Assembly: GCA_973895155.1 (NCBI GenBank)
Contig: OZ316894.1
Location: 16,236,699 to 16,300,698, forward strand
Length of the DNA stretch: 64,000 nt
Reading direction: 5' to 3'
DNA from: Marsupella aquatica
Taxonomy: Eukaryota; Plantae; Marchantiophyta
This document shows positions 19,401 through 64,000 of this stretch, piece after piece (position 1 is the stretch's first letter; each line of letters opens with the position of its first letter). The translations under genes and the position numbers were made by a program. Under the pieces are notes generated by a model. The model was not told the DNA's origin, did not search any database, and was given only the letters and a program-made list of their open reading frames with translations.

Positions 19401-19932
19401 CCGAGTGAGACAGGTCACATGGTTGACTGGATTGAGAGTTATGACGATGCCGTGCCTCCAGCCAGAACAGAATGGCTCTAATAATACCACGCAGACCTTT
19501 CTGACCCCCACCAAGCCTCTGGATGCCTTCCACTAAGACACTCTCTTTGATCTTGGTAGCTCTAAGTTGAGCATACAGTTGCGCTGTCGCGCACGAACCC
19601 TTCCGTTGTGCAGCCTCCTCTGTTGTTAGGTCCGACGTGTATCCTGGGGAGCCTGATTCATCAACAAGGCCTCTACTGTGGCTCCCCCCGATCTCTACAT
19701 TACTGCCGTCTGCACCACCACTTCCCGACGAAGTACCGATAGAGTCTCGTCCAACAGCAGTACCAACAGAACCGGAGTGAAGAAAACTACTTCCTGCAGA
19801 AATATCCATGGGCTCATCGCGAAGCCACGTACAAACATCTGCCTCAGCAGGAGAACTGCGCTGCTGGTGCAGTCTGCTGAACTGGTTGTGATAATTGCTA
19901 CCTTTTACGTCGGTGGAGCTAGACATGGCCAT
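16437..19932 (-). CDS. ABI3: ABI3/VP1-like B3-domain transcription factor (LAV family), 6 coding exons; start may lie further upstream
   Basis: Exons 19932-18223, 18080-17976, 17840-17740, 17603-17557, 17116-17040, 16838-16437 all have GT-AG introns and splice in frame (~813 aa). B1-like LRATKIKESVLVEGIQRLGGGQKGLRGIIRAILFWL; B2 STRLARKQRMDRNR; B3 [32 protein letters not shown]...[31 protein letters not shown]. The 101/47/77-nt B3 exons fit the usual ABI3 layout. The frame stays open upstream to ~20240, and the stop overlaps a GTAAGT, so both ends are uncertain. Confidence 0.93.
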
Positions 19933-22120
19933 CAAGCCGTGGTTGGAGGCGTCTCGAGGAAGAGGAGAAGGAGAGGAAGATTCGGGCGGCTTCGCAGCGT
20001 AAGTGCCCCTACTACTCTCATCTACCACCACCTTCCTTTTGAGACCACGGCCCGGACTGGACGACGAGTGACGCCAAACATGGCCGTCATTCAATGCACT
20101 GCCGAAGTGGTGCTGCCCAATTGTATTGTGCCGTTCAAGAAGCGGGGCTCGGGACGAGCAGCAGCAACCTGCGTTGACTCCATCCCACAATAATCTCAGA
20201 ACAGTGAATGAAGTGACGGCCTGCCTGTAACTCCTAGATTACGTGCAGCAGCAAGGGTGGGTGCAATCATGCGACAGCCTCTGCCTTCGTCTTCCCCCCG
20301 ACTTGTGAGACACACAGAACATCAAGAACGAACACACAAATACTCTATGCGAGGAAGAAGTAGGTTACCACTACAGCAGTATACCATCATCCTCCTTCTG
20401 ACAAACAGTGAATAGCGAGAACCAGAGCTCTCTCTCTCACACACGATATCACCGTCACTTCTCCAAAACTTTCGTCAGAGCAATCTTTCTCTCTCTCTTT
20501 TCTCTCTCTCGCTCTTAATGTATACTCAAATTCTGTTCGAAGGACGGCAGGAGGCCACGGTAGTACTGAATCGGCCACACCAGACCACACCAGACCTGAC
20601 AGACAGTACTGAACTCTTCCTCCGACTCCGCCAAGTACGGGAAACAAGCCGAAATGCGCAACCAAGCCGACCTTCTATTGCCAAATGATCTAAACTCACC
20701 TCTCGAGGCAATTTCATCCCGGCAGCCTCCCTCACCGATTTGTAGAATGCGCTGCGCACATAGAAACCTCTTCGAACGAGTTCCCCTCACATTCTAGAAT
20801 GCTCTTGGCTCATAGAAAGAAACCTCTTCGAATCCTCAAAGCACCTCAACGAACCCCGGCTCTATACAAAAGCACTCTGGCCTAACGCATCGAGGAACCC
20901 AAACGATAAAAGTTCAATGGCCACGTCCACACCACCTATACGTAGCGATCCCAACACCCGCAACTCCTATCTACCAGCTCCTGTTGCCCGACGATGATGT
21001 GGAAAAGAGAGCTCCAGGAAATGGCCGTGCTGAGAATGATGAGGAGACGAGAGCTCCAGAAAAAGCCTTCAGCCTCCATTTCTCCGTCGGGCCGAAGTCG
21101 AAGAGGGCCGACAAAGACGAGGCTACAGCCGTAGCGTTGGTCCTAGTGGATGGTCACTGACCAGAGCTGATTGAAGAATCCGGCCCACCTCCCACCTGGC
21201 GATCACTCATTGGCCGGACCCCTCGTCGCTTACATGAAAAGTTGTCCCGCCCACCAACACGGCTTTACCTTTTCGCTGTTACCGTGCAAATATCCTAATA
21301 AGGCATCTTCCTCAAGCAAAACGGCCTACTTTCCGTAAAATAGTCTCTACACATAGGGAGTGACGATTACACTCAGTTAGGGGTGAAGCTTCCATCAGGC
21401 CCCCGGGCGCTCTTTCTTGGCGTTTCGAACTTATGCAAGCTTGGTAGCATCCAGCTGTTCGATTGCACTACGTGGTAGCTTCATCTTAGGATGGATGAAG
21501 TTGATGCTAGGATGAACTAACACATTTGACTCAAAGACTATATGGACCAAGCTGTTTTTTACACCTGTAAGTGTCAGTTTTCATACAACGAATAAATGTT
21601 GTTTGAGTAGCAACAATGTTTCAAGATGATCCTTGCAAGATTTGGTAACCCCTGTAAATTACCATCCTGTCAAACATGACTATCTCTGTATGGGAGCTTA
21701 TGCTTCTTTTAGCTGTTCACTTTGAGGCTTTCTGCCGTTGGCCAGCTTGGTCCCCCATCCATGGGGTTCACTCAGAATAAAATAATAAATTCCAAAAAAG
21801 AAGAAAAAAAACTATTCACTTTCAAATTTGGGAAGGTGTGCATATATCTGATCCTCCATAGATTAGTCCTGACAAGGCCAAAAGAAAAAGGGGTCGTGAT
21901 AACTGCACATCAAAATATGGCATCTAATGTGTAGACATCCTTCATATCATGATAAACTTTATTATTTTCTTAAAATCAATGAGTGCACAATATATATTAT
22001 CACAATTTGATATGTGATTACTGGCAAGGGTGGAAAATAGCTTTCATTTGTTAAATTTTGAAGGACATAATCTGTTGCATTTACTTGTATCTCAACATAT
22101 GGATGGGTTCACCTGCAATT

Positions 22121-43713: not shown

Positions 43714-44057
43714 TGTTAGATATTGCTCTAATCTTGTGACTCATGAGCCAACCACAGTTCGTCTAACTCGGGTTAGGACTAAGCTAATGTTAGCGGTAGT
43801 GCTGTTGTGCATATAGTCAGGGCTGATGCCAGACCCTAGTGGAACTTAGGCTCATTGTTACGGAGCTAGTTGAGAGATAGGGAGAGCTTGTGTTGTGGAT
43901 GTTTGGTATGGTCGGTCGACCTAGAGTGCAGTAAAGCTCTTGTGTGTTCCCATGGACGTAGCCTCATGTGGAGGTGAACCACGTATCTCTTTGTGTCGAC
44001 TCTTGTGCGTTGGATGGTTCATGGGCTTGCCATTGCGAATGTCGTCTATGCTCAACA
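43714..44057 (+). repeat. Copia 5' LTR
   Basis: TGTTAGATATT...CTCAACA; direct repeat of 51318-51661; followed by PBS. Confidence 0.95.
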
Positions 44058-45024
44058 AGTGGTATCAGAGCATGCCTGGGAGGTAACGAGGTTTTTTTGT
44101 GATGGGTTTTTTCCAGCGTTCAGTGTCGATGGTACATTTGGAGTTTTGTCGCATGAAACTCGAATGTGTGTGGCTGAGCAGATAGGTTAGTGAGAGGGCT
44201 TTCTAACGGTGGTTAGAACTCGCTGATCGGTATCCGTGGTGCGGAGGAATCAATGTTTGCATCATTCAAGGTTTATTCGTGTTCGACGGTATTTCAGGGG
44301 AGAGATCAAAGTTTGCTTTTTTTTCAACGGTGTGAGCTGTGTGGTGCGGGAGGGATCGCACATTATAGCTCAACTTGAAGGCTAAAGCGCGCTGGTCATT
44401 TCGGTAGCTGGATTGCTGCCGAGTTATTACCGAGTGCGATGTGACGAGTGAAGGAGGCGTTCAGGTTTTTTCACAAGCTATGGAGCTTGTTCTCATCTGA
44501 ACTGGGTTTCTCTTCGTGACGTCCGACTTGGTGGAAGAAACGCAAAGTGCTACGGCTCAACGGGTGATCGCGGTGAGGCGGTCATTTTGAGCCCGGGATT
44601 GGCACTTGATGTGGAGTGAAGACGACGCGGCGGAATTTGTTTACTCTGCTGGAGCTATAGACTGTGCCGGTGAAATTCGGCAACATTTACCATCGGCGGC
44701 GTTCATTTTTCTCATTGGAAACGGCGGCGGTTAAGTATTGGACTCCTAGCTTCGTGGGCTACGCGGCGGTGTTGAGTTTTGAGTTTTATGAGAAGTTTCA
44801 AAAAAAGACATTTTTTGTGATTGTTTCATAGGAGTGACTCGGAGGATACTAGAAGAATTGGCGTCGGTGGAGCTTCAGGATCACAATGGTCAGACGGAGA
44901 GTCTGAGGAGGAGTTGCTACCATTTGAGGAGGAACTAGTAACACCGGTAGGATCACCGGTGCGGTGTGCAGTGGAGGAAGCTGTCATGCTACCAGAGTTT
45001 TTGGTAGTTGGGAAGAAGAGAGAG

Positions 45025-45570
45025 ATGGCTAGATTTGGAGGAGTGAAGTTTGAGGTGGAGAAGTACGATGGTTGTACTGATTACTTGCTCTGGGAGAAGC
45101 AAGTGAAAGGTGTCCTTCGGGCCATGGGCTTAGCTCATCTGCTCTCTTTGCGAGAGCAGTATGATGGAGAAGAGGAGATCTCAGAGAAGCAGTGGAGACA
45201 GAAGCAGGTGATTGTTGTTAATGCAGTGATGCTTTATCTAAAGCCGCACATCATCAAGCAGCTGGATGATTATGCGGATTGCGCGTCACTGTTCAAGGCT
45301 CTAAGAGAGAAGTACTACCGGGAAGATGCGTCAGACTGGCTGTACAAGAAGTCTCTGTTGATGAGCCTCAGGCTCAAGGAAGGGAGCAAGATGCAGGATC
45401 ACCTGGATGAGTTTGACAGTCTAGCGGTGGATCTGTCAAACTTGGGGAAAATTTTAGATCTACATCATCTGGGAGATCTAAATCCAGAGGGAAATTGCAA
45501 GAGAGGAAGCCTCTTGCATGTTGGAATTGTGGCAAGCCTGGCCACATGAAAAGGGATTGTTGAGTAAAGG
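45025..45570 (+). pseudogene. Copia gag remnant
   Basis: KFEVEKYDGCTDYLLW...LRLKEGSKMQDHLDEFDSL (UBN2-type gag), then a frameshifted zinc knuckle CWNCGKPGHMKRDC ending at the gypsy junction. Confidence 0.85.
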
Positions 45571-48500
45571 TCATGTTGGTCCTTACGCAATAATGCGTTG
45601 GCTGCCGTGTTTGTCTTCCCAGGAACGTGGCGGACTTCAAAATTGAGATCCGCCAAGAACATTTGTCAACGCATTTCCTTGGGGTTTAGCCTTGGCTTAG
45701 AACTGAAGTACCCGGCCAGCGAGCTATCTGTGTGGATTACCACTTTGGGACCGTTCTTAAGGTAAATCTCCCACTTCTTCAACGCATAGATCACAACATA
45801 TATTTTCCTTTCCGGCGTGATCCAATGATTTTCCAACTTACATGACTCAAAGGCCACAGGACGCCCATCTTGGTGAAGACAGGCGCCAATGGCATAATCA
45901 CTTGCATCTGTCCAAATCTTGAACGGCTTCCCCATCTCAGGTAACTTTAGAACCGGCGGCGTTATCATTAATCGATTAAGTTCTAAGAATGCTAACTCGC
46001 AATCCTGTATCCACACAAACACTTTGTTTTTCAACGTTAGCGCATTTAGGGGCCTTGCAATCCTCGCATAGTCTTTCATGTATCTCCGATAGAACCCCAT
46101 AAATCCTAAGAAGGCTCTAACCTGCCTTACATTGGACGGGCGCTCCCATTCTTTGATCTCCTTAAGCTTGTCCTGACTAGGCGTAATCCCTTCCGGGGTA
46201 AAGGTATGGCCGAGGAACTAAATCTCATTCATCGCAAACTCGCACTTGCTTGGTTTAGCAAAGAGACGAGCCTTACGAAGGCGAGAGAACACTTCTCTGA
46301 GCAACTGCTCATGTTCCTCCAACGTTTTCGAGTAGATTAGGATGTCGTCAATAAAGACAACAACCCTTGGTCCAACAAGTCATGAAAGATGGTATTCATC
46401 ATCTTCATGAATGTTGCGGTTGCATTACACAACCCGAACGGCATAACTCATAGGATCCGAACCTTGTGCGCATCGCGGTCTTATACTCATCTCCCTTAGC
46501 CATGCAGATCTGGTAATACCTAGACCGCAAATCCACCTTTGAAAATGTCTTAGCCCCGGAGAGGCAATCGAAGAGGTCATCCATATGAGGTAACGGGTAC
46601 TTGTTCTTTATTGTTTGCTTATTGAGCGCCCGGTAATCTACACACAATCTCAAAGTACCATCCTTTTTGGACACAAACTGCGCGGGCGCCCCGTAAGGAC
46701 TCTTACTAGGGCGAATGAACCCTTGGTCGATCAACTCTTCCAAGGCGTTCTTCAACATCATTCGCTCATTCAGGTTCAGATGATAAGGAGCTTTAGCCTG
46801 AGGAGACGAACCTGGCTCCAACTCAACTTGGTGATCCACTTCTCTCCGCGGGGGTAAACCTTTAGGTAGCTTTTGCGAGAGCACGTCGTTGAATTCCTCT
46901 AAAATTTCAGGAATTCGACCGCAATCGGGCCCGAGCTTAGCTGACTTGACCTTTGGCTGCGACGCAGCCTCCTTAGTTGGGTGGAGATGAAAGAAGAAAC
47001 ATTCATGTCCACCCTTTAAGTCTTTCCACCATTGTTTCGCCGATACACACGGAGACAACCACGACACTTTACTTACTTTGAGAAATCTTTCTTTATTTTT
47101 GGTAACTTCGTGTACAACGATGGGCTCACCGCCCTTATTGGGAAAATGGAGCACCTCACCCCCCGGTTTCAAGGTAACATTGTGCTTTCTGAGATAACCT
47201 ACCGACAAAATGAAGTCTATGGCTAGACCGTCTAGAACGTAGAACATCGTCTGACTAACAAAATTTTGTTGCTCGCCTATGACCTCTACTCGAAGTCTAT
47301 GTACCACTCTCGATACTATCCCCTTTGTGTCGTTGGCAAACTTGCACACTAACGGTTGTAGCAACTCTTGCACGTCCACCCCAAGACGTGCTGCCACCCG
47401 CCCACTTATGAAGCAGGCGGTCACGCCTGTATCCACCAACGCAACACCCAGGCTACCGTTAGAAGTGATATTCACAAAAATCAGTTTTTCAGGATCCATT
47501 GTCTTAACCTTAGGTATCTTCTCTTGCAACAACACCCTCTCTCGGGTAGGAACATCCCCTACAGGGACTTTGTCAGCTACTAAGGGTTTGGTTAGAGCAA
47601 TACTTACCTTAATTCTCTTCTGCCCTCCACCATCTCCGCTCGGCTTGCCACCTTTCATGGAACAATCCTTACTTTGATGGCCCATGGCACCACATGTGAA
47701 GCACAAACCTTCAGCCCACCTCTGCTCCATGGTTGCCTGCTTCTTTGCTTTCTGTGCCGATGAGGCTCCTTTCTTGAAGTTGTCGGCCTTCCAGTTTTGC
47801 TTAGCTTCTGCATTCTGGGGCTGAGGATCCGAACCACCGGCCCCTGCCCCCTCGGGTTGCTTACGCTTATTCTTGAAACCTTTTGTTTTCCCAGCTTTCC
47901 CCTTGGATCCCTTGCCACCCACCTTCGCCAAGTCCGGTTGGTTATTCACCAACGTAGTGGCCTTGTCGAAGGCGTCAGAAAGCATTTTGAACTCATGATG
48001 CTTTTCCTACAACTTTTCCCTGAGCAACGGCGGGAGCTTCACGATAAAGTTGTGAAGCTGTGTATGCAGGGTCTCTTGTCCCGTCGGGATACACGCCAAC
48101 TGATTCTGGTAATAAGTGATGAACTTTTGGATATCACCCCTGAAGCTCATCTCCGTTACACATTTCTGAGCGTGCCGCTCCGGCTACTTAGTGGTGACAT
48201 GAGCACGGAGACCCTCAACCAGGTTTTCCCAAGTTAACAGTAAGGAGGAGTCCTCTCGCGACTTCTTCCATGACTTGTACCAAGTCAAGGCATAGTCCTT
48301 CAGGTAAGGAGCGGCTGCGATAGCCCAAGTGGAACGCTCAACGCACGCTTGGAGATGAATCTCTATCGTGGAGAGCCAACTCAGGAACTTTTGTCCACTT
48401 TGTTCGTAGGCCCCGTCGTAAGTTGGAGGAGTCGGTAGCTGGTTCACTTGGAACATACTCCGTCCAACTACCATTCCCCCCTCGGGATGCGTCGCACTCT

Positions 48501-49000
48501 GACTACCTAGACTAAGTAAGTACTTAATCTGGGCCCCCTTGTTGTGTTCCAACTGCTCATAGATGAGTCATTGGTCATGAGTCAACGGACCCAGACCGTC
48601 GTCAGCGCCGGGACCTTGCGGGTTGTATGAGGACGGTCCTCCAACCGTCTTTCCTTTGTGGGCCGCCTATCCTTAGGTTCTCTTGTGGATTTTGGTGATA
48701 CCCCCGCGTCTTGCGAGCACCATGACCTCCCGGGACTGAGGTATCACCCGCGTCATCCTGGTTCTGTTTGGTCAAATTATCCACGATGACGTCTGGCTTG
48801 ACATCATCCTCTGGTTCCGCATTCAACCCTCTCAAGGCTGGGATCAGTTCCTCCTCTTGGTCCTGCCCTGCTTCCTCTATTTTGGCTTCAGCCTCATCGT
48901 CGCTTCCTTCTGCATCGGAGTTGATCAACCACCTCCTTCCCTTTAAGTCGGCGGCACTCTGCACTTGACGTGTTTGCCGCAATGGTCGATGGTTCGGCCG
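45571..49000 (-). pseudogene. Gypsy gag-pol (gag, aspartic protease, RT, RNase H), degenerate
   Basis: ORF fragments 48602-48982, 48184-48552, 46405-47985, 45666-46100 and 45465-45662 in gypsy domain order. Confidence 0.9.
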
Positions 49001-49281
49001 TTGCGTCTTCTTTGTCCTGCTTGTAACGTTCGTCTAGGGAAGTCGACCCGTCCTTCTTCTATTCATCTTGAACTTGGGCTCTCCCCTTGGTGGGGGGAGC
49101 CTGTTTGCCACTCTTTGAACGAGTGTTTTTAGCCATGTTCCCAGCGACCAAATCTGCCCGCAGTCGACCCGTCGGGCACGTTGAAGCACTAAGTTCCCGC
49201 AAAAATCTGTTAAGATTTTTGGATTCCGACTTAGCACAACTTTGGCCCGGTGTCTATGCCAGCAATTGCTTTGATACCACA

Positions 49282-50724
49282 AGTGGTGGACCTTACCACC
49301 CAGCTCCCTCACCAATCCCAGCACTCACGCCTAAGTGCCCTTGGTGCCCGAACGCCTCCACGGAATACCTCAAGCAAGCAACCTAGTGCCCCTTGCACCG
49401 CCAGCGGCCCCTCCCATACCAAGCCTCACTTGCTCTCTAACACGACCGCTACTCAACGGTCCTCCCTTTCTGCACAAGCAACCAAGCACCTTGGTTAAGT
49501 GACCCTTCAGGATCTAGAACTCGGCAAGTCTAGCATCCTAACTCAAGCTCAACAGACGTTGGTAAATAGGTCAGCGATAGGTCCTCCGGATGCCATAAGC
49601 CGGAACCAGAGCCTGTGCCCACTGTCCGTCCAGGACAACTCCTTCCTTGGGTGCGGCCCGGGTTCCCCCTTGTACCTATCCATCACCAACTGACCGCCCT
49701 GACCTCAGACATGCTCATGGCCCAACTAGCGTAGCCTGTCCTAAAGCTTGTCCCAACAAGCCGGGACCAGAACGGCCCCGACTCTAGCAGTCGCTCCCGG
49801 TTTGCCCCACCAATGGTCTAGGGGCCGATCACCCTTGGAACTCATCCTCCACACCTACTTGGCCTTGCCTCCCCAATGCAAGCTCCCTTGGGAGACTGAA
49901 CGTGGCTTGGCTACTGTTCGGCAGGATTTGGCAAGCGAGCAAGCTAATACCCGTAAACCACGAGAACCCATGGCACCTCTAGACCCATCTGAGCCCAGGA
50001 AGTCCTCCAACGGACTTCCCGTTGGGAAGATATCGCCATTTCCATTTGGTGGTTTCCCTTAGTGTCGCGACCGCCGCGGCTCACGACTTCAGCTCGCCCT
50101 TAGCCCCCAGGGAGACACCACTCCCCTCATATATGCTTCTGGAGACCTGCCACCCCCGGACCAGCTTTGGTCCCTAAACATTTGGCCCCCAACCCGGATC
50201 CTATCGCGCATAATGGGCGCGCCACCAACTGGCAACGCCCATAACTTTCTCGTTAGGCATCCGCCAGCGGAGTGCCTTAGCCCGTTGTGACCGGGCCGAT
50301 CCACTGCTCATGCCTAGGCCCTCAGGTCTCATTGTTGCTTGGGGCCCCCGATCGGCCTAACCCGGATCGGGCCGTAACTTGCGCCCCAAGCGTCCGTTGC
50401 CCATGGCGTCAACTCCATTGGGCTTGGGCCCAAGAGGAGCTCACACTCAAGCCCTTAGAACTCAAAGTCCATCCGGAGGTCCGAACAGCCCTCCTTGAGC
50501 CCGGCCCATTTCGCCTTGACCCGACCAGCTATCAGTTAGTCCAAGTCCTTAGTGTGTGTCCCCAGCTCGGCTCCTTGCCTCGCTAGTGCCACGGCTCATT
50601 GCCCACAAGTCTCCCCGTGCTAAGTCCTCCCTGGATGGCCTATCCGGGCCTGGACCATAAGGGAGCTTGGCGTCAGAGTCAGTGACGCCGGAGCTAAGTG
50701 TTAAGGTAGTCGAGTTCCGCGACT
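49282..50724 (-). repeat. Gypsy 5' LTR (~1.44 kb) with AGT...ACT ends
   Basis: On the - strand it begins AGTCGCGGAACTCGACTACC and ends GGTCCACCACT, 2 nt before the PBS. Homologous to 6940-8404. Confidence 0.9.
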
Positions 50725-51106
50725 AAGATGTATCAATTGGAAATCTACCTTGCAGAAGTGCATATTTCAGTCTACTACAAAAGCAGAGTATGTTGCAGTA
50801 GCAGAAGCAGCAAAGGAAGCAATTTGGTTGGACAAGTTGATCGCGGAGATGGGTTTAGAGCATGGCAAAATTACTCTAAACTATGATAGTCAGAGTGCTC
50901 TTCACTTGGCTGCTAACCAGATGATGGATAGCAGGGTAAAGCACATTGATATCAGGTACCATTTTATCAGGCAAGCAGTGTCTGATAAAACTTTTGAGCT
51001 AGTCAAGATTGATGGAAAGCTCAATCCCGCTGATGCCTTTACCAAAGTGATTCCTTTGGAGCGTTTCTCAAGACACCGTGCTACTTTGCAGGTTTTGGAG
51101 TTGTAA
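50725..51106 (+). pseudogene. Copia RNase H remnant
   Basis: INWKSTLQ...STTKAEYVAVAEAAKEAIWL...YDSQSALHLAAN...RVKHIDIRYHFIR...NPADAFTK. Confidence 0.92.
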
Positions 51107-51317
51107 TACAAGTAGAGTTATTTAGCAATGTGTGACTATTTGTATATGGATTACTCATTCATGTTTGGCTACGGCTTAGTTCTAGTTAACCCTTAGTTAA
51201 CATACCCTTGTGGTTTTTAGGGGGAGACCTGGTTTGGTGATTGTCTAGATTTTCCCGCTGAGGATTCTATATGGTAGCATTTAGTCCAGTCCCCAAGATA
51301 AGAGTCAAGGGGGAGTT

Positions 51318-51661
51318 TGTTAGATATTGCTCTAGTCTTGTGACTCATGAGCTAACCACAGTTAGTCTAACTCGGGTTAGGACTAAGCTAATGTTAGTGG
51401 TAGTGTTGTTGTGCATATAGCTAGGGCTAATGCCAGGCCCTAGTGGAACTTAGGCTCATTGTTACGGAGCTAGTTGAGAGATAGGGAGAGCTTGTGTTGT
51501 GGATGCTTGGTATGGTCGGTCGGCCTAGAGTGCAGTAAAGCTCTTGTGTGTTCCCATGGACGTAGCCTCATATGGAGGTGAACCACGTATCTCTCTGTGT
51601 CGACTCTTGTGCGTTGGATGGTTCATGGGCTTGCCGTTGCGAATGCCGTTTATGCTCAACA
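51318..51661 (+). repeat. Copia 3' LTR
   Basis: TGTTAGATATT...CTCAACA; preceded by PPT; followed by TSD AATGG. Confidence 0.95.
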
Positions 51662-52793
51662 AATGGAGTGTTTTAACACAAATGAGTGGTTTAATGAGGA
51701 AACTCAACCTCTTACACATTTGAAACCAAAATGCACAATTAACAAAAGACAAGGAAATATAATTCTCCTTCATAGACTATAACTCTAGGACTTTTAAAAT
51801 CAGGCTTTAGCACTGCACTACCTCCATCACCATAGCTTATGGAAGGATATGGCCACTTTAAGATGTTAAAAGGTACACAAAACCCCTCTCTGATTGCTTC
51901 CCAAATTTATACTCCCATTTCTCTTCCTTCTAGTATTACACTAGAAGAATCCGAGGTGAACTGAGACCGCAATATGTGACTCATTTTGGCTCATGTGACT
52001 TCATTGTGACTCAACGTGACTTGACCCACGCTGTGACCCTTGGAGTTGCAAAAGTTGAGACCAAAAAATGGTAGTCACTATTGATACTGGGCTTTGCAAC
52101 TTGCTTGATACCCATTTGTGACTGATCTGTGACTTTATTGTGGAGTCTAGCCTTGTTTCGACGTGACTGCAATATGACTTCAGCGAGTCACATCGTAAGT
52201 CACATGCATGACTTACCCGCATTCAACAACGACTAGTGTGTGACCATTTAGTGTCACAGGAGAGACCAATGGAGACCCTGGCCCGCGTCACACAACAGAA
52301 CCATTTGGGACTCTATATACTCATGTTTATAACTAATAAGGTTCACATGCAAGTTATAACCATGACTAATGAACACAGAGGGACAGTTCATAAGGAGAGA
52401 GAGCACTCGACATTACAATACATAGAAACCTGATGTTCTAACTTTAGAAATATAACACATTCAATACAAGAAATGAACATAGCATGAATGACATCCACAT
52501 GAAACAAAGCATCATATAAGCAGATCCTACATAAAACATTCATAAGAATTAAACACAATCACAATCTTGCTAAAAAATGAAGATCATTTGAATTCCAATG
52601 GAATAGTTTACAATGTGATCAATGTAATTCAGACAAAACAGGAACTCATAATTGATGACTGCAGGATGAGATAACTGAAAGCACATGCATGATACTATGA
52701 ATCTCCAAGAGGACATGATTCTTGTACTGCTTCTTGACATCTAAAATCTACATAACATGACTCACACTACAAACAAATAATGACATGACATTG

Positions 52794-55700
52794 TTATGGA
52801 TCCTCTATGAACTTGCTTGGCCATAATACCAAAGAACCTGCAGCATCTCCAAGTGTCTTTTGAGGAGGATCATCATTTGTGTTTGGAATGGGAAGGACAG
52901 CTTTAGGTTTCACTAGTAATGTGACTAACACTACTGAATAACCTGGGGGAATCCTCTTGCCATGGAACGTTGTGGAACCAACCTGCACTCTGCCAAATCC
53001 TACTCGTGTTCCACTCTCATCAAGAGCTAACAAGCCACTTTGTCCCTCAGCATTAGGTGCTTTCCCCACTTCCACCTTAGATCTTTCTGCCAGCACCGTT
53101 CTTGGAGGTTTGTATGAAACCTTTGACGTGGCTCTGCTCCCACCAGCAGACTTGCTTCGTGTGCGCATGCTTCCTCTCTTCACAGTAGTGAAGCTAGGCT
53201 CAGTAGGTTCCTCTATTAGGACTGTCATAGTAGCAGGTTGATCACCTGGGAGTGTCATACCAACTAACTCTTTGGTTGGATTTATCTCAACAAGAGGCAC
53301 ACCTGTCATTGAGAATGATACATTCTGCAAATCATTTATCTCTGCAATGGAGTCAAGATCTACATAGCATGAATCTGGCTCAATGGTATCATTGTCATGC
53401 TTGCTGATATCCTCATTTGCCCCAACATTGATATCATCCACTCCCTTGCCAATGTCATCCTCATCCAAACATGGTTGACTGCCCTCTGTCAAACAAGTTG
53501 CTTGTACAGACTGCAACTTTGTTGCCTCTAAATTACAGCGAGTATTTGCCAGGTTCTCATACTTCTTCTCTGTAGCACCTGTCTTATTCTCTATGGACAC
53601 ATCAACCACAATATATGTTACTGAAAATAACACATTCGACAAACAATGTCAATTCAAACTATACATTTAATAATCATATCCCACACAGTTGTAAAGGCCT
53701 TACCTTCAAGCCTACATGTCGTTGGCATGCCAGAAGAGTGCATCGACTTTGCCACCTCAAGTGGTGATGGTGGAACTCCTGCAGAATTGGAATCAATTTT
53801 ATCTCTCACCGACACAACAGCTTCCATTAATGTCTTGAAGTTCACATGGAACAAGTCAGTCAATGAATTCAAACGTTCATTGATCTCTGGAAGACATGTT
53901 TCGACAGCCTTCAAACGACCACTTATCTCTGTAAGTGAAGATCCACCTCCCTACATGACACAGGGGTATAGGTTCAATCACTCCATATGAAATGTTGGGC
54001 AATATATGCACAATCAATGTTATATACAGTGTACACCTGAAATTCAACGCAGGTCATTCAATTACCAATCAGAACTCATATAACTTACATGCTTGGAGGA
54101 TTCAGATGCACCCTCTTGAGCCCGGGTGTTCACAATTTCAGCCCTCAACTCTTCTTTTGAAGGGCTTTGCCCCAATTGGGCTTTCTGCACATGCATGGCA
54201 AACACAAGTTATCGATCAATATTCAGGGAACGTACACTAAAAAACAAAGTTTACATGTATGGGTTTACACTAAAAAACAGTACATAGTGTAGCATAAATT
54301 ACATAGCTAGGCCATTCATTCTTACCAAACGTTTAGCTGTCGGTGCAGTGCCGGTCCTTCCTATCAGATTAGGGTTCTGAACACTCAACCTGGCCTCGGT
54401 CATCTGTGAACTCTTCTTTTTTGAAGCATCTGTTACAAAATAAGCTACTAACCTTGCCCACACTTTATCATCACAACTGGCTGGTGGAGGCATATCTGGC
54501 TTCTCCCCACCTTCCTTCCAAGCCTTATGCATTCTCCACCTCTCTTGCTTGATGATTTTACCTGCTGTACTCTCTAGGCAACCTATGTCCACGCCATCAT
54601 CACTGCCCACATAATTCCATTTGGCAGCAACATTTTCACATACAGTCTTCCAATCTTTTGGATGTTGTTTTTTAAAATTAATAACACTCACATCTAACCA
54701 ACGCAATACTTTAGCTTTCAAATCAGCATGCCATCGGTTCTTGCGAGGACACTCAGCATCCACCCATTGTCTCTCATTCAACTTTACGTTCCCTTTCTTT
54801 GTCACCTCCCCTCGTGCACTGCTCTCGGTAGTACTGGGCGTTGTATTGGCCACCCCTTCATTCACCCTACCTGGGGTTCTGAAGCCACCTGGGAAAATAC
54901 AATGCCATTCATGCTTGAGAACTACATATAGCAGAATGGATGACGGCAACATTCAATGCTTCACTTCAAGAAAAATTCTTCAAACATACATACCTGTAGC
55001 TCTGACTGCACTCTGAAATTGTTGCGACCCTGGACCACCTGTCCAGCCTAGTACAGGGGCCGGATGATGTCACTTTCTAGGTATGTGTGTGCAAACATAT
55101 GTACTGAAAACTAAGTACAAACTGTAGGAAAACAACTGAACATTCACCAACATACCTGTCCCCCTTCCGTGCTGCATCTGCATAGGGGCATTAGTGAATA
55201 CTTGAGTCGATGGTTCGACTGTCCAACCTGCACACATACATTTTCTATCATTATACATGTGCAGAGTCCCCCCCACGTGAATGGACTCCAGATATAATGA
55301 GTTCTTCCATTGTTGACAAGATCAGACATTACCTGCCCCTCTTCCAGCGTTTGTAGGTACTGAATTTTGATATCCCTGCCAATTACCTTCACCACCTTCC
55401 CAACCTTGTTCATTCCACGACCCACCACCATCCTCCCAACCTGGTTCAACCCATGTCTGTCCTTGTGGACATTGGAACTGATCATTACTAGCATTTGCCC
55501 AATCAGGTTGGGCAGAATCTGCATGCAATGGCAGGTGGACAGAATTTCATGTTGTCTGAATCCAATACATCCCAAACAATGTCAAAAATTGATATGCAGT
55601 CTGAAATTCAGGAGTGCCATGCCTTCACAAAGAACTGGCATATAGATATATACTCACATCCCCATGGTTGAGGTGGACGTCCATACCCACGAGATTGTGG

Positions 55701-56479
55701 GTTTGGACCTGCTCTGCCTCTACCACGGGCATAACCTAGAGCTTGCCCCCTGCCATAGTATTGGGCACCAGCCTGGGATCTACCACTACTACCACCTCGC
55801 CAACCTTGATCAGAGGTCAGCCCCCCCTGCTGGTATGGTGCATGCACAGGCTTCGAAGGCAAAACAGAACTGGCAGGACGCTGCATCACATCACCAACTA
55901 CAATGTCAGGAACTAAGCAAGGTACATATGTGTAGTACTGAACATATGAAACCTCTAAACAAGAGTTTTTAACTCAAAACCTTGTTGGGAAAACTACTTA
56001 CCTGTTTCTTTTGGGGCTGCTCTGCAATGTATTCATCTTCATAACCCCCATCCTCATCCATTTCCTCTGGAAAATACTCATCATCTGCATCTTCTTGTCT
56101 AGTGTCTGCACCCACCTGTGCAGCATCAATGTCATCTCCACATTTTGCCATTGTAGGTACGACCTTCTTGCTCAACCTGTCACTCCGACGCACAGGCCCA
56201 GAGATAGTGCTGGTCACCCTTCTTGCGTACTCCTTTTGTTTCTTTGAAAATGCTGTGGCTCTGCGACATTCCAATATGAGAATACAGTCACAATTTCAGT
56301 GCCACATTGAACTATTCATGTCACACAAACTCAGCGGAGGGGTGTAGTTGAGAATCGTTCCCTTACAATTCAGCCACATCCTTTTCCAGATCCAGTTCTG
56401 CGATTTTGGCTTTCACGTATGCTCGTTGTTCCATAGCTTTCCTTTCATACTCACACATCTCTGTGTCACTCTGTTCCAT
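52794..56479 (-). CDS. CACTA TnpA-like accessory protein (Ptta/En/Spm-type domain plus C-terminal Tnp1-like domain) with N-terminal GW/RG-rich region; 10 exons, apparently intact
   Basis: Predicted exons 56479-56367, 56260-56002, 55880-55658, 55518-55333, 55227-55156, 55047-54994, 54888-54326, 54184-54089, 53950-53704, 53620-52794; all GT-AG, 2640 nt in frame (~879 aa). Contains PPASCDDKVWARLVAYF...KKSSQMTEAR...GRTG and HGKRIPPGYSVVLV...LPIP...TLGDAAGSLVLWP, typical of CACTA second ORFs. Confidence 0.8.
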
Positions 56480-56635
56480 CCTACTGGACCACAAAAACAT
56501 GTCATCTACGATCACCCCGTATAACACAATGCAACCACAATCACCAGGCATCCATCCATACATCTGTGTTGCTTCAGAATTACTTTATTACACATCCTTC
56601 CCCTCACTAATGTCCATGCAAACAATTCACATTAC

Positions 56636-59600
56636 TCATGGCACAGGCACACTGTTGGCATCTGCATCTCTGAATTCGCCTCCTTCAGCAAATGCATCTA
56701 CCCTTGTCACAGGAATGAAGTCCCCGCTATCATGAACTACAGGCACTTGGTCTGAACGCCGACGATCAAAGGCACTATGAGAGTGTAAATGAAACTCAAG
56801 GTTTGATCCTTCCATCCGACGTTGCCTGGCCTGTTTATGACACACTACACGCCAACCTGGGGAGTCTTCCACATCCAGGAAGAAAGCTTGCTCCACCTGA
56901 CTAGGAAACACAAATGGCTCAGACCATTCGGGCAATTTCCCTCTGAAATTGGCCAGCAAGAAACCGTCGTTGTCTCTCTTCATGGTAGCCCTGTTACCAA
57001 GCCAATCCTGCCGCACCCATGAACCTTTCATAAGAATCACAGGACTGGACACCGCCCCATAGTCCAGAGCCCATATGTCAACTAATTCTCCCACATATCC
57101 CATCTCCATCCAGGCCCTGTCGTGATTGTGGCTCTGTTGCTCAAATACAGTGATGAACCCGCAGTCATTCGTCACCCTGTAGGCACTGTCACCATCCTTC
57201 ACTCGAAAGTGATTCCCATATGCTCTCATCCGTTTGTAAGTCTTCACTTTCAGGCTAGGGGCATTAGACAGTAGGTAAACATCTGCATCCATGTCTGGGT
57301 GGGTCTCGTGATGCTCTCTAATTGCCACTCTGATCCACTCCATGAAACCTGGAAAAGTTGTTCCTGCAGTGGGATGGGCCGCCTTCAATGACTCATACTC
57401 CCTGAACGAACAACCACACAGCATTAGCTTGGGTAAACATGAACAGGCTGAAGGAGAAAACCACACGAACACAACATTTAAGCTCATGAACTGGATTATA
57501 GCACATGTATGCACTCACTGTATCCAGGGTTCCATCACCACAGTGTTGTGCAATACAAAGTCATGTGCCAAGTCTCTCATAGATATGGTCAGGTTCTTTG
57601 TGGTTGCAGCCCCTTCCAGTACTTCACCTATCACCCCTTCCTCCTCATCAGAATTCCACACCCTGGTCTTCACATGCTCATATTGTGCTATGTATTCGGT
57701 CAGAAATCCTAGAGTCTCATCCTTGATGTAACCTTTAGCCATGCTTGCTTCAGGTTTGTAATATGTTCTCACGTGACCTTTGAGTAGCTTCATGTACCGT
57801 TCCAAAGGGTACAACCAACGAGCACTCACAGGCCCAAATTGGTGTAGCTCTTCCACAACATGGACAAGTAGGTGGGTCATGACATCAAAAAATGCGGGAG
57901 GAAAATAAATCTCCAGGTCACACAGCACCTGAGCGACATCTTCTGTCAGTTGTGGGAAGTGTGTTTCATCCCAAACCTTCACACAAATACGACGAAACAC
58001 ATCACTGAGTCGCATGATCACAGTACGAACAGGCTTCTGCAACAGGCCCCTCAGGCATAAAGGCAACACCTGTTGCATCAACATATGGTAGTCATGGCTT
58101 TTCATACTACCAAGCTTTCTAGTCATGATATGCTTCTTGAAAGCACTGCCATAGTTTGAAGGAACCTTCAAAGAACTCAACCTCTGCACAAATAGTTCCC
58201 ACTCTGTGTCTGTCAGAACATAGGGCGCTTGGTACTTCAAGAGCACATCAGCTCTGTGGGCATGTGGCCTCAACCAAAGATGGGGTTTCATTCCCCTCTG
58301 TTCAAGATCCAATCTCACTGAACCAGTGTCTTTCTCTCCACACAAGAATCTGAGTAGACTCTCACAAATATTCTTTTCAATGTGCATAACATCAATGTTA
58401 TGTTTGCTTGGCTCAAACTCCTGCATCGTTGCAATGCAAAAGCGTCAGGAAATGCCTCAAGTTTAGTCTCTCTCTTCGAAATGAATGCACATGCTCTGAA
58501 CCAAAACATGTATCCCAATTAGCATCAACTCCAAGAGGCTTACCCTCCAGTACTTGAGCTCCAAGTCCAATATGCTCAGTCTTTTTACACCATATCGCTT
58601 TATTGGATCACTCACTCCATCTTCCCTGCCCCCTCGTTTGATATAGTCATCCCTCAGTGCTCCCCACTGCCTGATCTCCTCTTTGGTCACTCGTGCCGGG
58701 GGTCCACGTTGCTCAATCTCATTGCCAAAGTGTGCAATCAGTGCCTGTCTTTCTCTGTAAGGGTGATCTGCCTTCAGAAAACGACGATGGCCCATGTATA
58801 TCACTTTCTGCAGGGCTCTGGAGTACTCACTCGTGACATTGCGCCCACAGATAGTACAAGCACAATATCCTTTTGTTGTTTGGCCTGATATCATCCCATG
58901 GGCTGGGTAGTCAGCTATAGTCAAAATGACAATGGCTCTAAGGATGAATGGGTTTAACCTCCCAAGCCTCTGTAGGACATCATATGTGAGAACTCCTTCC
59001 TCCCAAAGCTTTCTCAATTCCTCCACTAGGGGAGCCAGAAACACATCTATGTTGGCAGATACAGCACTGTCTGGCCCTGGTATCAGTAGGACCATCAGAA
59101 CAAAAAATTGCTTTGTAGTCATCCAAGGAGGAAGGTTATAATTCAAAATAGTTACAGGCCAACACGAAAATTTGTTGTTCTTGTCTCCAAATGGGTTTAC
59201 CCCATCCAATGACAGCCCAAGTCTGACATTCCTCGGCTCAGCAGCAAATTCGGGATACATCTCATCTATGAGTTTCCATTGCCTTGAATCTGCAGCATGT
59301 CGTTGTAGCCCATCATCACTTTTCTTGTCAGTTGCCCAAGTCATCATCTCTGAGATGGCACGGCTTCTGAACATCCGCTGAATTCTGGGAATGAGTGGAA
59401 AATGACGAAGTACCTTGGCGGGAACCATAGACTTTCCTGAGTTCCGATACCTGTGCTTCCCACACTTAGGGCATGTCAACGATTCTTTATACTCCTTTCT
59501 GAAAAGAACATGCCCATCAGGACAGGCATGGATCGAATCATAGTTCAATCCAAGATTAGATATGCATCTTTTTGCCTCGTACATGTTCTTGGGCAAAATA

Positions 59601-60367
59601 TTACCATCTGGTAGCACAGTTGTTTGCAAGAATGCCAACAACTCAGAAACCAAAACGTTGGGGACATTGTGGTTGCCGCAAATGTTCAGGAACATGATGA
59701 CAAATCCCAGTTTAGAACATTTGCTACCGGGGTACAAAGACTTCCTGCCTTCCTGTATTTGCAGGGGAGAGCCAAACATCCCATCATGCCCAGGGGTTTC
59801 CTGCCCTATCTCAAACTCATCAAGAGGCTCTTCAACAGGGGGCACACTTGCATCTGCAGCCGTATCCTCTTCGTTGTCCAGCCCATCATGAAATGCATCC
59901 AAGTCTTGGAAGATGTCTCTCACCATCTCTTCCACATGAATTCCTTCGTCACGTGGTGCTGCCTGAGCACCATCCCGTTGGAGAGCTGACAACCCATAGA
60001 GACCAGCTACAACATTTTCAAATGCACCAGGCAGAACCTCACTTGCCCGTCTTGCAGCATTGGCAGCATCAAATTCTAACCTCCACTCCTCGTCGGAAGA
60101 ATCTTCCTCTGCAGGATCATTCCAAACTCGATGTTGTGGATCTCTTCCATGAACCGCGATATGCCGCCAAACCTCATTCAAACCCCTGGTACGGGATCCT
60201 TGGCAGATTGCACAAGGACATCTCATCCTACTGGCTCCTGAAAGTCTGGTTCGTAACCTTTCACGCTGCCAAAGCTTATTATCATGGCGTGATATCCTTG
60301 TGGGATGATGCAAAGGCAGTGCCTGTGCCCTGGGCTGGGTTTGGGGAGGGTGGTGACCAGGGTGCAT
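56636..60367 (-). CDS. CACTA TnpD-like transposase (transposase-associated Zn domain, Transposase_21, DUF4218/DUF4216-like), 3 exons, apparently intact
   Basis: Exons 60367-58544, 58420-57519, 57401-56636 join in frame (~1163 aa). Motifs CPCAIC, IHACPDGHVLF, HAADSRQWK, EPRNVRLGLSLDGVNPF, NYNLPPW, DYPA, HNIDVMHIEKNICES, MKSHDYH, FPPAFFDVMTHL, WLYPLERYMKLLK, EPFVFPSQVEQAFF. Confidence 0.93.
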
Positions 60368-60899
60368 TGTAACAGGCTGGAAGCTCTGCAGTCATGGACA
60401 GCAGTGAACAGGGATGCCTAATGGTGGTATTTGTGTTCCATATATCCCTGACTGTATGTGCCAAAAGAGTTAACATAACGTGTAATAAATTCTCACAAAC
60501 CCTAAACCACCCCAAAAGAAAAAAACAGGTTTGCGAGTAGTGTACCTATTGTCAAATGAATGACACAAAATTCCTCAATGTTTGAGGGTGTCACCACCTC
60601 CACAGCTGTCCTCAAATGTACCGCCTCTGCATGTACACCCATGACCATATCAGAGTCCAATCATGTATAGTCATAGGCATAGGTGTGAGAGCGGTATCAG
60701 ATATCTCACCGCCGAGATTTGAGCCCACCCAGTACGTTTACAGTGACACCCCCAGGCAGCAGGAAACAACAATCCGCCAACAGTAAAATAAGCCCAACTG
60801 CCACCAACCATAACAAGGTACATTAGTTCAAAGATCACATTTATTTCAATGATCTGATTTATACAAAAAAACTTGTGTCCAAACTGATGCTACTACTCC

Positions 60900-61772
60900 T
60901 CACTCTGATTCAGAATCGCTAATGACCCATTCCTCACTTGTTGTCTCATAGTCCTCTCTGTAAGGATCCTGACCCTTCCGTGGCCAGGCCTCAAAAAGAT
61001 CATAGTCCATTGGGTTTTGACACTTCCCAGCTGCTACTAATTCCACAAGCCAAGCATATGAAACCACAAACACATTATGGGACATGACATAAAAGCGAAT
61101 GTCTCCCTTCCCAAACTTGCGGCAGGCTTTGGGATATGACTTAGTAATGACATGAGTGGTGTCCTCTGTTATATTCTCCTCAACTGTCCCACCTAGGTCA
61201 AGCACCGTGGACTTGTACACTTTGCACTTAACCTCTCCAATTCCCGCCTCCACAAACACCATGCTCAGCCCTTTCAGAATGGGGGTTGGTTGCTTCGTCT
61301 CCTCAGCCAACATACTCTTCAGCCTTCTAGAGCTCTGTCCTTTGTTGAGTACAGGTCCATATTGGACATCAGCAAGCCGTGCCTTTGCTTCCCAGACTTC
61401 TTGTTCAGCCCAAGCTGATGCAGTAGCTTCTTCATCCTCCCACAGCTCATATTGCTCAGTATCCTGTACAATCTGATGTGCCATGGAATCTGTGATCCAA
61501 GAGGCCTCAACTACTTTTAGGCCTTGCTTAGTAATTGCAGAATTCATGTAGGACCATGACCACTTCTTTATCACTGATAGCCATGTCCCTGCAACAACAT
61601 GTGTAGTCTCTAGAGTGATGTCCTGAACTACAGTGCCATGGAGCTCAGAGAATCGTTTCTGTACAGTTGGTCAATGCACTTTGGTCAACCCATGCTGGCC
61701 ATGGACCAAAATGGCTCTGACCCCTGTAAACACTGCTGGGTGGTCACACTTTCTACGTTTCCCAGGCTCCAT
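60900..61772 (-). pseudogene. Tandem-BRCT protein gene (BRCTs resemble DNA polymerase lambda N-terminal BRCT) with one in-frame stop
   Basis: ATG at 61772: MEPGKRRKCDHPAVFTGVRAILVHG...KVH*PTVQKRFSELHGTVVQDITLETTHVVAG...VVEASWITDS (BRCT1). BRCT2 is LKGLSMVFVEAG...LGGTVEENITEDTTHVI...KFGK...VVSYAWLVELVAAG. A single TGA lies at 61673-61671; the frame is otherwise continuous with ORF 60900..61574. Confidence 0.75.
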
Positions 61773-62364
61773 GTACACACACCCTACGTGATGACAGTGA
61801 ATTTTGGAAGAATGGGTTCACCTGACAATACAAGGACAACAAAATTCCTGCTTTTTGAGTTGATCTGGCCCACTGGTGCTCAGGTCCGATTTTGATAGGT
61901 ACAAGGGATATGTGAACAATACATACTAGGCACCTGCACGGATGCAGGACATTGTTTGAATATATACTACAAAATCCATATCGAAGGTGAAATGAAGTGC
62001 AACCAACTTGTCATGGCACATACATATTTTGTTGTAAAGGAGGATACATTCAATGACAAACTTATAGGGCAATTTGATTAATCGCATGCCTGATAATTTA
62101 TACGCTTACAACTTAGAAGTCCTGTTTTAATTTAGCAGTCTGATGAAAGTGTTTATGAAAATGACCACTCAGCCTAAATACTTCCAAGAAGGCTTGTAAG
62201 GATAAGTTTTTATAGGCATGTACCCAGCCACTGACGCCAGAGCACAAGATAAGTGCTGCCTATATAAACTCGCCTACCCAAGTCCTTTTCAAAATTGGAA
62301 TCTCTGCAATCTCAAAAAATAGTACATCCACATCAGGTGCACTGTGCATGTACAATGTTCAGCT

Positions 62365-63045
62365 TCACAGCCAAGATATGTGATCTCTCACAGGAGTGCG
62401 CGAGGTAGGATCAATGGCATGGCGATGACAATAAAATATCCATCGATCAACACCATGTGCAGAGTGATCATAGATTTCTCTATCACAAGCATAACCCTCT
62501 GCTTGACGATCTTTCAGGCAATGATAGTGCCACATGGTGGGACACCTAGCACAGTGGACTATGTCAGTCCAGTACTCATGATCATGCTCACCACATGCCT
62601 TGCACCTATGAAGTGGGCAAGTTGTGGCATGAGTAGGCAAACACTCAAAACAGAAAAATCTCACACAAAAACGGTCTGGACATTTCCTAACATTTGCTGC
62701 AACATCAACAGAGCCCTCATAGGACCCCAACTTCCCACACTGTGCACACTTAGCCTGCTTCTCCAAACAATCAGTGCACATCCAGTCTCCCTGGTGTGTT
62801 GACGGGAGGCCCACCCCTGGACAGTTGTTTTCTGCAGCAAGGTCAGACTCCGGGTTGAGGTGGAAATGTCTCATGCAAGGGCCCTCACAAATGACCAGGC
62901 CCCCACCATCGTCACAAATGGCACAACAATGAGCTGCCTTCTGGAAAATCTGACTTGCAAAGAAGTTAGTAGCATCTGCCCCAAGTACACCTGTGTTTCT
63001 CACCTCTGTCACACGCTTTTTGGCTTGAATTTTAGGTCGTGCCAT
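62365..63045 (-). CDS. Stand-alone EDM2/NSD-type tandem PHD-finger protein (226 aa, intronless), probably CACTA cargo
   Basis: ATG at 63045. CAICDDGGGLVICEGPCMRHFH...C...WMCTDC...CAQCGKLGS...C...C...TCPLHRCKAC...CARCPTMWHYHCL...IFYCHRHAIDPTSRTPVRDHI follows the plant EDM2 PHD module as I recall it (CAICDNGG..CEG.C.RSFH...TCPLHKC...CRRCP..YH..CL...IYC..H.ID....TPVRDH). Confidence 0.8.
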   Translation of the reverse strand: MARPKIQAKKRVTEVRNTGVLGADATNFFASQIFQKAAHCCAICDDGGGLVICEGPCMRHFHLNPESDLAAENNCPGVGLPSTHQGDWMCTDCLEKQAKCAQCGKLGSYEGSVDVAANVRKCPDRFCVRFFCFECLPTHATTCPLHRCKACGEHDHEYWTDIVHCARCPTMWHYHCLKDRQAEGYACDREIYDHSAHGVDRWIFYCHRHAIDPTSRTPVRDHISWL

Positions 63046-63056
63046 GCCTGCGCATG

Positions 63057-63200
63057 AGATAGACTCTACAGTTTAGCAGACTGCACAGAAAGTAATATAT
63101 ATTTAGCATTTAAGGTACAAAGGCATTTAGATAGACTCTACAATTTAGCAGACTGCACAGAAAGTAAAATATATTTAGCATTTAAGGTACAAAGGCATTT
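63057..63200. repeat. 72-bp tandem duplication just upstream of the PHD ORF
   Basis: AGATAGACTCTACA...AAAGGCATTT x2 with 2 mismatches. Confidence 0.9.
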
Positions 63201-64000
63201 GCTACTGCAATGAATTGGAATGGCCACACAAGGATGCAGAGCAGACATACTTTTGGTATGTTGAGCCCACACACAAACCTGATCCCCTAATACAATTGCT
63301 CCACCAACACCTCAATTTTAATTGTGGCTATGATTCACCAAAGGAGATCTGCAACAACATTTCATGCATTTGAATCACATACAATAGTCGTGACATGTAA
63401 AACGCGCATTCTTCGAAGAGGATTGGTATGAAGCAGTGTCATAAGGGTTGAAATTTATACATCCTAAATAGGCTATGATAGTGGCTGAGACAAATAAGTG
63501 ATGCATAAATCACATTTTACAGGTTATCACATGGCCCATTAATTCATTGAACGTTGCAATGTTCACCAGGTTAAAGCAGTCATGAAAGCAGTCTTTCAAT
63601 AGAGACTTTTATGCGAGTTTGCTAGCCTCTTAAATTAGGATATTTTGCTTAGTGCAGGCATAATAGGATATAAGTTATGTACTGTTGACCCTAAACCCTG
63701 GACCCAAAATTGCTCATACATCAAAATTTTAAGTAAATATCCTCTGTGTTGAAGTCAGAGTGTTAAGCTATAGGTCAATGGTATCTGGTCTGTGCATGCG
63801 GTGTGACAAGTGGTCCTCTAGAGCATGTGATCCAAACATGTGTAGACACCAAAGTCACCGGTGGTGGGGTCTGGGAGGGCAGGACAAGTGACATCACCAG
63901 GCACACTGCAGGATGGCGAGTGGTTCCAGATGATACATTGTGCTCTGTGCAAAAATCGGCATCCAATTCTGGGCCAGAAGCCCTACAGGCAGGACAGTCA

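Follow-up and report, generated by a model that had tools for sequence, protein, structure and literature searches.

What is a free-standing PHD-finger gene doing beside a transposase, and might its product read histone H3? This question is raised by an ORF at 62365..63045 of the window, i.e., the whole 64,000-nt stretch of Marsupella aquatica DNA analysed here. The original prediction described it as a stand-alone, intronless, EDM2-like PHD module, carried by a transposon and possibly acting as an H3K9me2 reader or as a decoy that competes with or redirects the EDM2 complex.

A stand-alone, intronless triple-PHD gene

The ORF is intact, encodes 226 aa and runs from an ATG at 63045 to the end of its stop codon at 62365. 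It occupies exactly the interval predicted, though on the minus strand, the plus-strand frame over the same interval being interrupted by a stop. Shuffling the 12-kb element region 150 times yielded no ATG ORF of at least 226 codons, which rules out a chance origin. Pfam places three NSD-type PHD models (PF23011, PF22908 and PF23004, each scoring under its curated cut-off) in order on residues 39-93, 96-141 and 148-180, and the ORF, the Pfam matches and the relatives together define a stand-alone, intronless triple-PHD gene of the EDM2/NSD type.

The protein begins with a basic, NLS-like and H3-like leader of putative function (residues 2-10, ARPKIQAKK; 63016..63042, minus strand). PHD1 (C41-C93; 62767..62925, minus strand) is a C4HC3 finger with E54 and H39 at the positions of D312 and D297 of AIRE, respectively; PHD2 (C100-H146; 62608..62748, minus strand) carries a His-to-Cys ligand swap at residue 132 and a shortened linker; and PHD3 (C148-H209), together with an EDM2-type C-terminal motif ending in TPVRDHISWL, occupies 62368..62604 on the same strand. 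The predicted leader MARPKIQAKKR, finger RFFCFEC (residues 129-135) and C-terminal TPVRDHISWL are all present. The 24 zinc-ligand positions align with those of EDM2, and both of the departures from EDM2 that had been proposed are borne out: residue 132 is Cys in 6/6 aligned members of the family described below and His in 7/7 EDM2 sequences, 2/2 PHD-only plant paralogues and 2/2 NSD rows, and the PHD2 linker is ~20 residues shorter than that of angiosperm EDM2.

Relatives of the ORF share its start and stop. An exon of a host EDM2 gene is rejected as an explanation, given this shared start and stop, four paralogue intron sites that are read through, and a search of the window that returned no further EDM2 region with a meaningful E-value. 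The start codon is assigned from conservation, and AG sites directly before the ATG leave some formal room for a coding exon upstream. Two tandem 72-nt copies, 97% alike, occupy 63057..63200 and end 11 nt 5' of the PHD ATG; other copies of the element show small indels there, and its AG acceptor-like sites could possibly belong to a 5' UTR intron.

The PHD gene very probably lies in a multi-copy CACTA element

On the minus strand, the PHD gene is followed in order by a tandem-BRCT gene, TnpD, a TnpA-like region and a CACTA end at 51939, in agreement with the proposal that the module is transposon-borne. The tandem-BRCT gene (60900..61772, minus strand; Pfam) has 290 codons and a basic start, and the in-frame stop at its codon 34 in the window reads Trp in every contig that covers this codon in runs X3, X6 and X8. 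A likeness of the BRCT pair to DNA polymerase lambda was not confirmed, searches giving generic BRCT and weak BRCA1 matches only. The first TnpD frame (58463..60391, minus strand) matches Transpos_assoc and Transposase_21 (E 1e-70), and further TnpD frames (56636..58444, minus strand) match DUF4218 and DUF4216, with GT-AG intron-like gaps between them. The TnpA-like region (52794..54952, minus strand) contains a below-cut-off Transposase_24 match at 54299-54952 and an ORF at 52794-53648 with no Pfam match. The CACTA terminus and its subterminal repeats, 11 copies of a GTCACA-type hexamer, lie at 51939..52400 on the plus strand. A matching inverted CACTA end was found neither between TnpD and the PHD gene nor up to 64000, so the element most simply extends beyond the window edge.

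Contigs matching 51000-64000 are present in 4/4 public runs (8,696, 21,319, 1,141 and 2,392 contigs) and cover 30/30 bins; with thousands of contigs per run over its whole length, this 13-kb stretch is plainly a multi-copy repeat family. The contig pieces listed tile 60301-61654, 61634-61845, 61763-62311 and 62317-62488, leading from TnpD through BRCT to the 3' end of the PHD gene, with indel rows at 62312 and 62327 in contigs that span the gap between the last two tiles, and the pieces across gene junctions are deep in several runs. Summed contig depth, which is not a copy number, is several-fold higher over the PHD ORF (62284-63151) than over its flanks in runs X2, X3 and X6, and run X7 shows deep cover in coding parts only, a pattern suggesting that the PHD gene is carried by other element subfamilies too. 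At 0.28, the CpG observed/expected ratio of the PHD ORF falls among those of the remaining element ORFs (0.21-0.44) and is unlike the 0.72 of a host B3 gene. Linkage of the PHD gene to a transposon is seen for this window's family alone.

Other features of the window include a Copia element at 43714-51666, whose 349-nt LTRs (43714-44062 and 51318-51666) are 95% alike and which is broken by an opposite-strand Ty3-type element at ~45.6-50.7 kb. The host B3 transcription-factor gene belongs to the FUS3/LEC2 group, is presumably ABI3-like and lies at 16437-20238 on the minus strand.

The stand-alone family is conserved

A word search identified, among 90 candidates, 5 relatives of 217-245 aa at 37-81% identity, all of which have the same start region and end either at DHISW or 8 residues past it. 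A search with a profile against 1.84 billion representatives gave 562 matches at E 0.001; the family was drawn from the 150 of these that were listed, among which 14 further short members were chosen by eye, bringing the family to at least 20 sequences including the query, with identity down to 36%. In a tree of 24 rows, from which fragments and near-duplicates were left out, 8 family members form one clade with support of 100/98. In 5/6 aligned members, 24/24 zinc-ligand positions are Cys or His, P0005 being without two, and relatives at 36-37% identity have start and stop in common with the PHD ORF.

The variants among element copies were taken from the best-supported rows, the best 40 of 132. 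The two frames, PHD and BRCT, account for 55% of the stretch and contain 0/12 of the indels listed; among the substitutions listed for the PHD ORF, 5/14 are synonymous vs 27% expected, which shows no clear sign of selection, and several are private to this copy. By eye, ~6/20 family proteins leave the homology as if frameshifted. A metagenome scan returned 11 loci, of which 0 are members of the stand-alone family, 7 are EDM2-like plant sequences, 1 is a short fragment and 3 are unrelated PHD genes; among viral contigs, 0/42 candidates were confirmed. It is highly probable that the CACTA element includes the PHD gene and that selection maintains this gene.

The module is of EDM2 type and probably closest to methyltransferase-less paralogues

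The proposed EDM2 affinity is upheld by both searches. In the single-protein search, 2/2 longer relatives are EDM2-type; in the profile search, 9/11 longer relatives are EDM2-type and 2/11 are NSD. Profile scores are 70-109 bits for EDM2/ELP vs 39-40 for NSD. An NSD origin is disfavoured by these far lower scores and by the C-terminal motif, which is common to EDM2 and not NSD. Trees containing the long NSD branches place the family without resolution vs NSD, and NSD-type SET and PWWP domains are absent from the PHD ORF, which gives PHD matches only in Pfam.

Like Arabidopsis EDM2 and ELP1, with which it shares ~30% identity, the PHD ORF has the three-finger module and the C-terminal H-I-x-TP-x-DHI motif. 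Unlike them, it is without the N-terminal RFD-like region, the acidic patch, the methyltransferase-like domain and introns, has the His-to-Cys swap and the short linker, and is located in a transposon. The ORF ends after the module, leaving no methyltransferase-like ELP domain, and the methyltransferase profile is negative for family members. The same domain is missing from five EDM2-like proteins of 619-768 aa (P0024, P0027, P0029, P0034 and P0040), which form one clade with support of 98/99 and, like the family, end soon after the module, within 3-47 residues. These short paralogues also have R[HY]FH, CPxxW and a pre-PHD segment poor in acidic residues in common with the family; unlike the family, they have ~400-500 residues at the N-terminus and retain both the His ligand and the long linker. 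As a clade, they are the best non-family BLAST match for 13/20 family members. In the AU test, grouping the family with four angiosperm-type EDM2 rows is rejected (p-AU 0.002), and grouping it with the short-paralogue clade is not (p-AU 0.47); in the best tree, the family is not joined to the short paralogues and falls, weakly supported (73/75), beyond every EDM2-like row.

The closest host proteins are probably methyltransferase-less EDM2 paralogues and not angiosperm EDM2, and such a paralogue is suggested, rather than shown, to be the donor. The predicted absence of the EDM2 methyltransferase C-terminus is real, but it is probably inherited and not the family's own loss, because its probable closest paralogues already are without this domain. 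Within the module, four GT-AG introns are retained in transcripts of the PHD-only plant paralogues; the window ORF is free of them, which would fit capture from spliced RNA or later intron loss.

A PHD-only version of EDM2 had been predicted as a transposon product. The stand-alone architecture stands; it is not unique to transposons, as intron-containing PHD-only paralogues exist in plants. Examples are L003:679-1662, L004:203-1003, P0043, P0051 and P0072, several of which start with M-A-R-x-K, and an Atlas cluster of PHD-only EDM2-like proteins holds 65 Streptophyta proteins (339 aa). Like the family, those of L003, L004, P0043 and P0051 present a lone module after a basic leader; unlike it, they have introns, the His ligand and a grouping with angiosperm EDM2, the last of which suggests a separate origin of the same architecture. 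No TnpD match was found at the 8 PHD-only plant loci tested. The stand-alone EDM2-like architecture by itself is thus not new.

Predicted histone binding and fold

The residue aligned with AIRE D312 (E54) is acidic, Glu or Asp, in 6/6 family members, whereas the one aligned with D297 (H39) is His or Gln in 6/6 and acidic in none. In AIRE, D312 anchors H3R2 and cannot be lost without abolishing H3 binding, and D297 contacts K4, its loss raising the Kd from 4.7-6.5 to 147-173 uM, i.e., ~20- to 35-fold (PMC2261226). Set against H3K4me0 readers of the AIRE/BHC80 type, PHD1 keeps the acidic R2 residue and has the K4 residue replaced, and without a D297-equivalent acid its H3 binding may be weak. 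In the 15 residues before PHD1, the family has 0-3 Asp or Glu, whereas 7 EDM2 proteins, named or full-length, have 6-9, and the invariant Asp that precedes PHD1 in angiosperm EDM2 is absent. With the R2 acid kept and both the K4 acid and the EDM2 acidic patch absent, PHD1 is predicted to be a modest-affinity reader of H3 A1-R2 with no evident K9me2 preference. The proposal of an H3K9me2 reader is unsupported, since the EDM2 acidic patch before PHD1 is absent and no feature examined points to K9me2 specificity; binding to ASI1/AIPP1 is likewise unsupported.

An AlphaFold2 model of the protein built on an 18-sequence alignment reached a pLDDT of 67 and a pTM of 0.65, with a disordered leader, after an earlier model on 6 sequences had been poor (pLDDT 50). 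The best structural match to the second model is the NSD2 PHDvC5HCH (Z 5.2, rmsd 2.4, 71 aligned residues), all matches to this model being weak. Those at the top for PHD1 are mostly H3-binding fingers, again all weak, and RING-like PHD structures are among the weak matches at Z 2.5-3.0. Structure searches found no solved structure of an EDM2 PHD module.

An H3-like leader

After removal of the initiator Met, the protein starts with ARPKIQAKK, which equals H3 at A1, R2, K4, A7 and K9 (H3 N-terminal peptide as in PMC8166343). The H3 mimic motif, defined as an initiator Met followed by a small residue, R, x and K, occurs in 48/20,996 human proteins (PMC8166343). It fits 10/17 family leaders, one of them from a second Met, 3 fragments among the 20 members having been excluded from scoring; to this extent, the fit is a new observation of this analysis. 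The 10 motif-bearing leaders have A/S at position 7 in 10/10 cases and K9 in 6/10, and exact ARTK and exact RTKQ each occur in one family leader. In distant members, residues 1-9 match at 4-6/9 positions and the next 15 residues at 0-1. When the first 12 residues are shuffled, the A1-R2-K4-K9 pattern arises in 0.05-0.4% of trials per member, members being related and not independent, and among the matches listed the motif occurs in 3/136 His-type relatives.

Basic NLS composition favours the motif by itself. It is absent from 7/17 leaders, including that of the 74%-identical P0003, and among the matches listed an M-[AST]-R start is present in 14/145 non-family relatives; for these reasons the motif may be in part inherited or may simply be an NLS. 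The original prediction recognized the leader as basic and NLS-like, which holds, and made no mention of its H3-like register or of the tandem-BRCT neighbour. M-A-R starts are also seen in many deep-branching full-length EDM2-like proteins (P0024, P0026, P0027, P0029, P0030, P0035, P0091, P0101 and P0129), hinting at a possible family-wide self-binding N-terminus.

Possible roles of the PHD protein

The account we favour, and to which we give an even chance, is that the PHD protein is an accessory chromatin factor of the transposon, a predicted H3-tail reader that is gated or extended by its own leader. It would likely have begun with a multi-copy CACTA element capturing the module of an EDM2 paralogue in intronless form. 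The protein would be nuclear, its PHD1 would read H3 A1-R2 with no strict K4 or K9 preference, and PHD2-3 could recruit a partner, be it TnpA, TnpD or an RNA-processing factor of the host. Through its likeness to H3, the leader might fold into PHD1 as a self-inhibitor, or might serve as a decoy that occupies H3 readers and writers of the host. As a result, either the element would stay expressed in silenced chromatin or the transposase would be brought to nucleosomes. The product would best be filed as acting like a captured chromatin reader and not as EDM2 proper.

A bolder version, which we regard as possible at a rather low probability, assigns a lineage of plant CACTA transposons a two-part chromatin toolkit, composed of an EDM2-derived reader with an H3 mimic (A1-R2-K4-A7-K9) and the tandem-BRCT protein. 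The mimic would gate the reader or soak up host H3K4 and H3K9 readers and writers, so that the element escapes silencing, and the tandem-BRCT protein would engage the repair of DNA breaks where the element excises or inserts. If true, histone mimicry, known from viruses, would be employed by a transposon.

That the protein is instead a specific H3K9me2 reader, or acts as a dominant-negative fragment of EDM2, either competing for the ASI1-AIPP1-EDM2 complex or redirecting it and thereby promoting read-through of the element's transcripts, is improbable in our assessment. EDM2 does bind H3K9me2 and promote full-length transcripts across intragenic transposons (PMC7529245; bioRxiv 10.1101/2022.09.21.507229; also PMC3632883), the module is EDM2-type, and the element, a long multi-intron unit, could profit from such an activity; nevertheless, neither the acidic patch nor the invariant pre-PHD1 Asp of angiosperm EDM2 is present, an angiosperm-type EDM2 origin is rejected by the AU test, and identity is only ~30%.

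We likewise hold it unlikely that the protein is an integration adaptor alone, which would bind nucleosomes and the transposase complex and steer insertion, with no silencing role and with the leader as an NLS. Chromodomains, PHD fingers and an MBD have been proposed or shown to guide the insertion of retrotransposons (PMC6673714), and a second reader-type gene, the tandem BRCT, adjoins the PHD gene. However, the known targeting domains sit in the element polyprotein (PMC6673714) whereas the PHD gene is a separate ORF, and an NLS has no need of the A/S7 found in every motif-bearing leader.

Still more doubtful is a non-histone role, in which the fingers would serve the element as a zinc module that binds proteins or resembles a ubiquitin/SUMO ligase. 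The lost K4-binding Asp, the swapped ligand and the RING-like structures among the weak matches could be read in this way, yet the R2-anchoring acid is kept throughout the aligned members and H3-binding fingers make up most of the top PHD1 matches, weak as these are. A functionless captured host fragment, or a separate repeat adjoining the CACTA element, is equally doubtful: the window shows no far CACTA end, the excess depth over the ORF indicates that it also occurs with other flanks, and some family proteins look frameshifted, but frame, ligands, start and stop are intact at 36% identity, junction pieces are deep in several runs, and broken copies are usual for transposon genes.

Significance and comparison with known systems

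A conserved transposon gene derived from a host heterochromatin reader, with a tail that resembles H3, would suggest a transposon-host conflict at the level of histones, in contrast to the known plant counter-silencing proteins VANC and TnpA, which recognise DNA motifs. At 226 aa, the PHD protein is small enough for easy expression and assay and offers the EDM2 PHD module in a minimal form that occurs in nature, and the finding highlights a clade of methyltransferase-less EDM2 paralogues.

In the literature searched, outside which lie Repbase and most subscription journals, no report was found of an EDM2-type PHD gene in a CACTA element, nor of a BRCT gene in one. The main text of a 2026 survey of Spm accessory proteins (10.64898/2026.08.24.746577) names no PHD, BRCT or EDM2, which its supplements could list, and a term search of PMC9406493 and 10.1101/2024.04.02.587720 gave nothing relevant.

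Among retrotransposons, PHD fingers are known in CR1-like elements, chromodomains in chromoviruses and an MBD in CopiaMBD (PMC6673714); among DNA transposons, Rehavkus carries a PHD and VANDAL carries VANC (PMC6446971), fungal EnSpm elements carry TET/JBP genes (PMC12730594), and a red alga has enlarged En/Spm elements with 4-5 ORFs (PMC6431247). The PHD gene resembles the CR1-like and Rehavkus PHD fingers, the chromoviruses, CopiaMBD and the EnSpm TET/JBP genes in being a host epigenetic domain kept by a transposon, and differs from them all in that it encodes a triple finger of EDM2 type, stands free in a plant CACTA element and is paired with a tandem-BRCT gene. With VANC and Spm TnpA it shares the position of an accessory gene of a plant DNA transposon that acts, or here would act, on chromatin; those two proteins bind DNA motifs and act via DNA demethylation (PMC6446971; 10.64898/2026.08.24.746577), whereas the PHD protein is a predicted histone-tail reader. 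In its leader, it resembles VRK1, PCLAF, BCL11B and influenza NS1, whose M-small-R-x-K starts are able to engage PHD fingers (PMC8166343). Unlike in these proteins, the motif here, which may act in this way, stands on a transposon protein with PHD fingers of its own and in many cases continues as far as A/S7 and K9.
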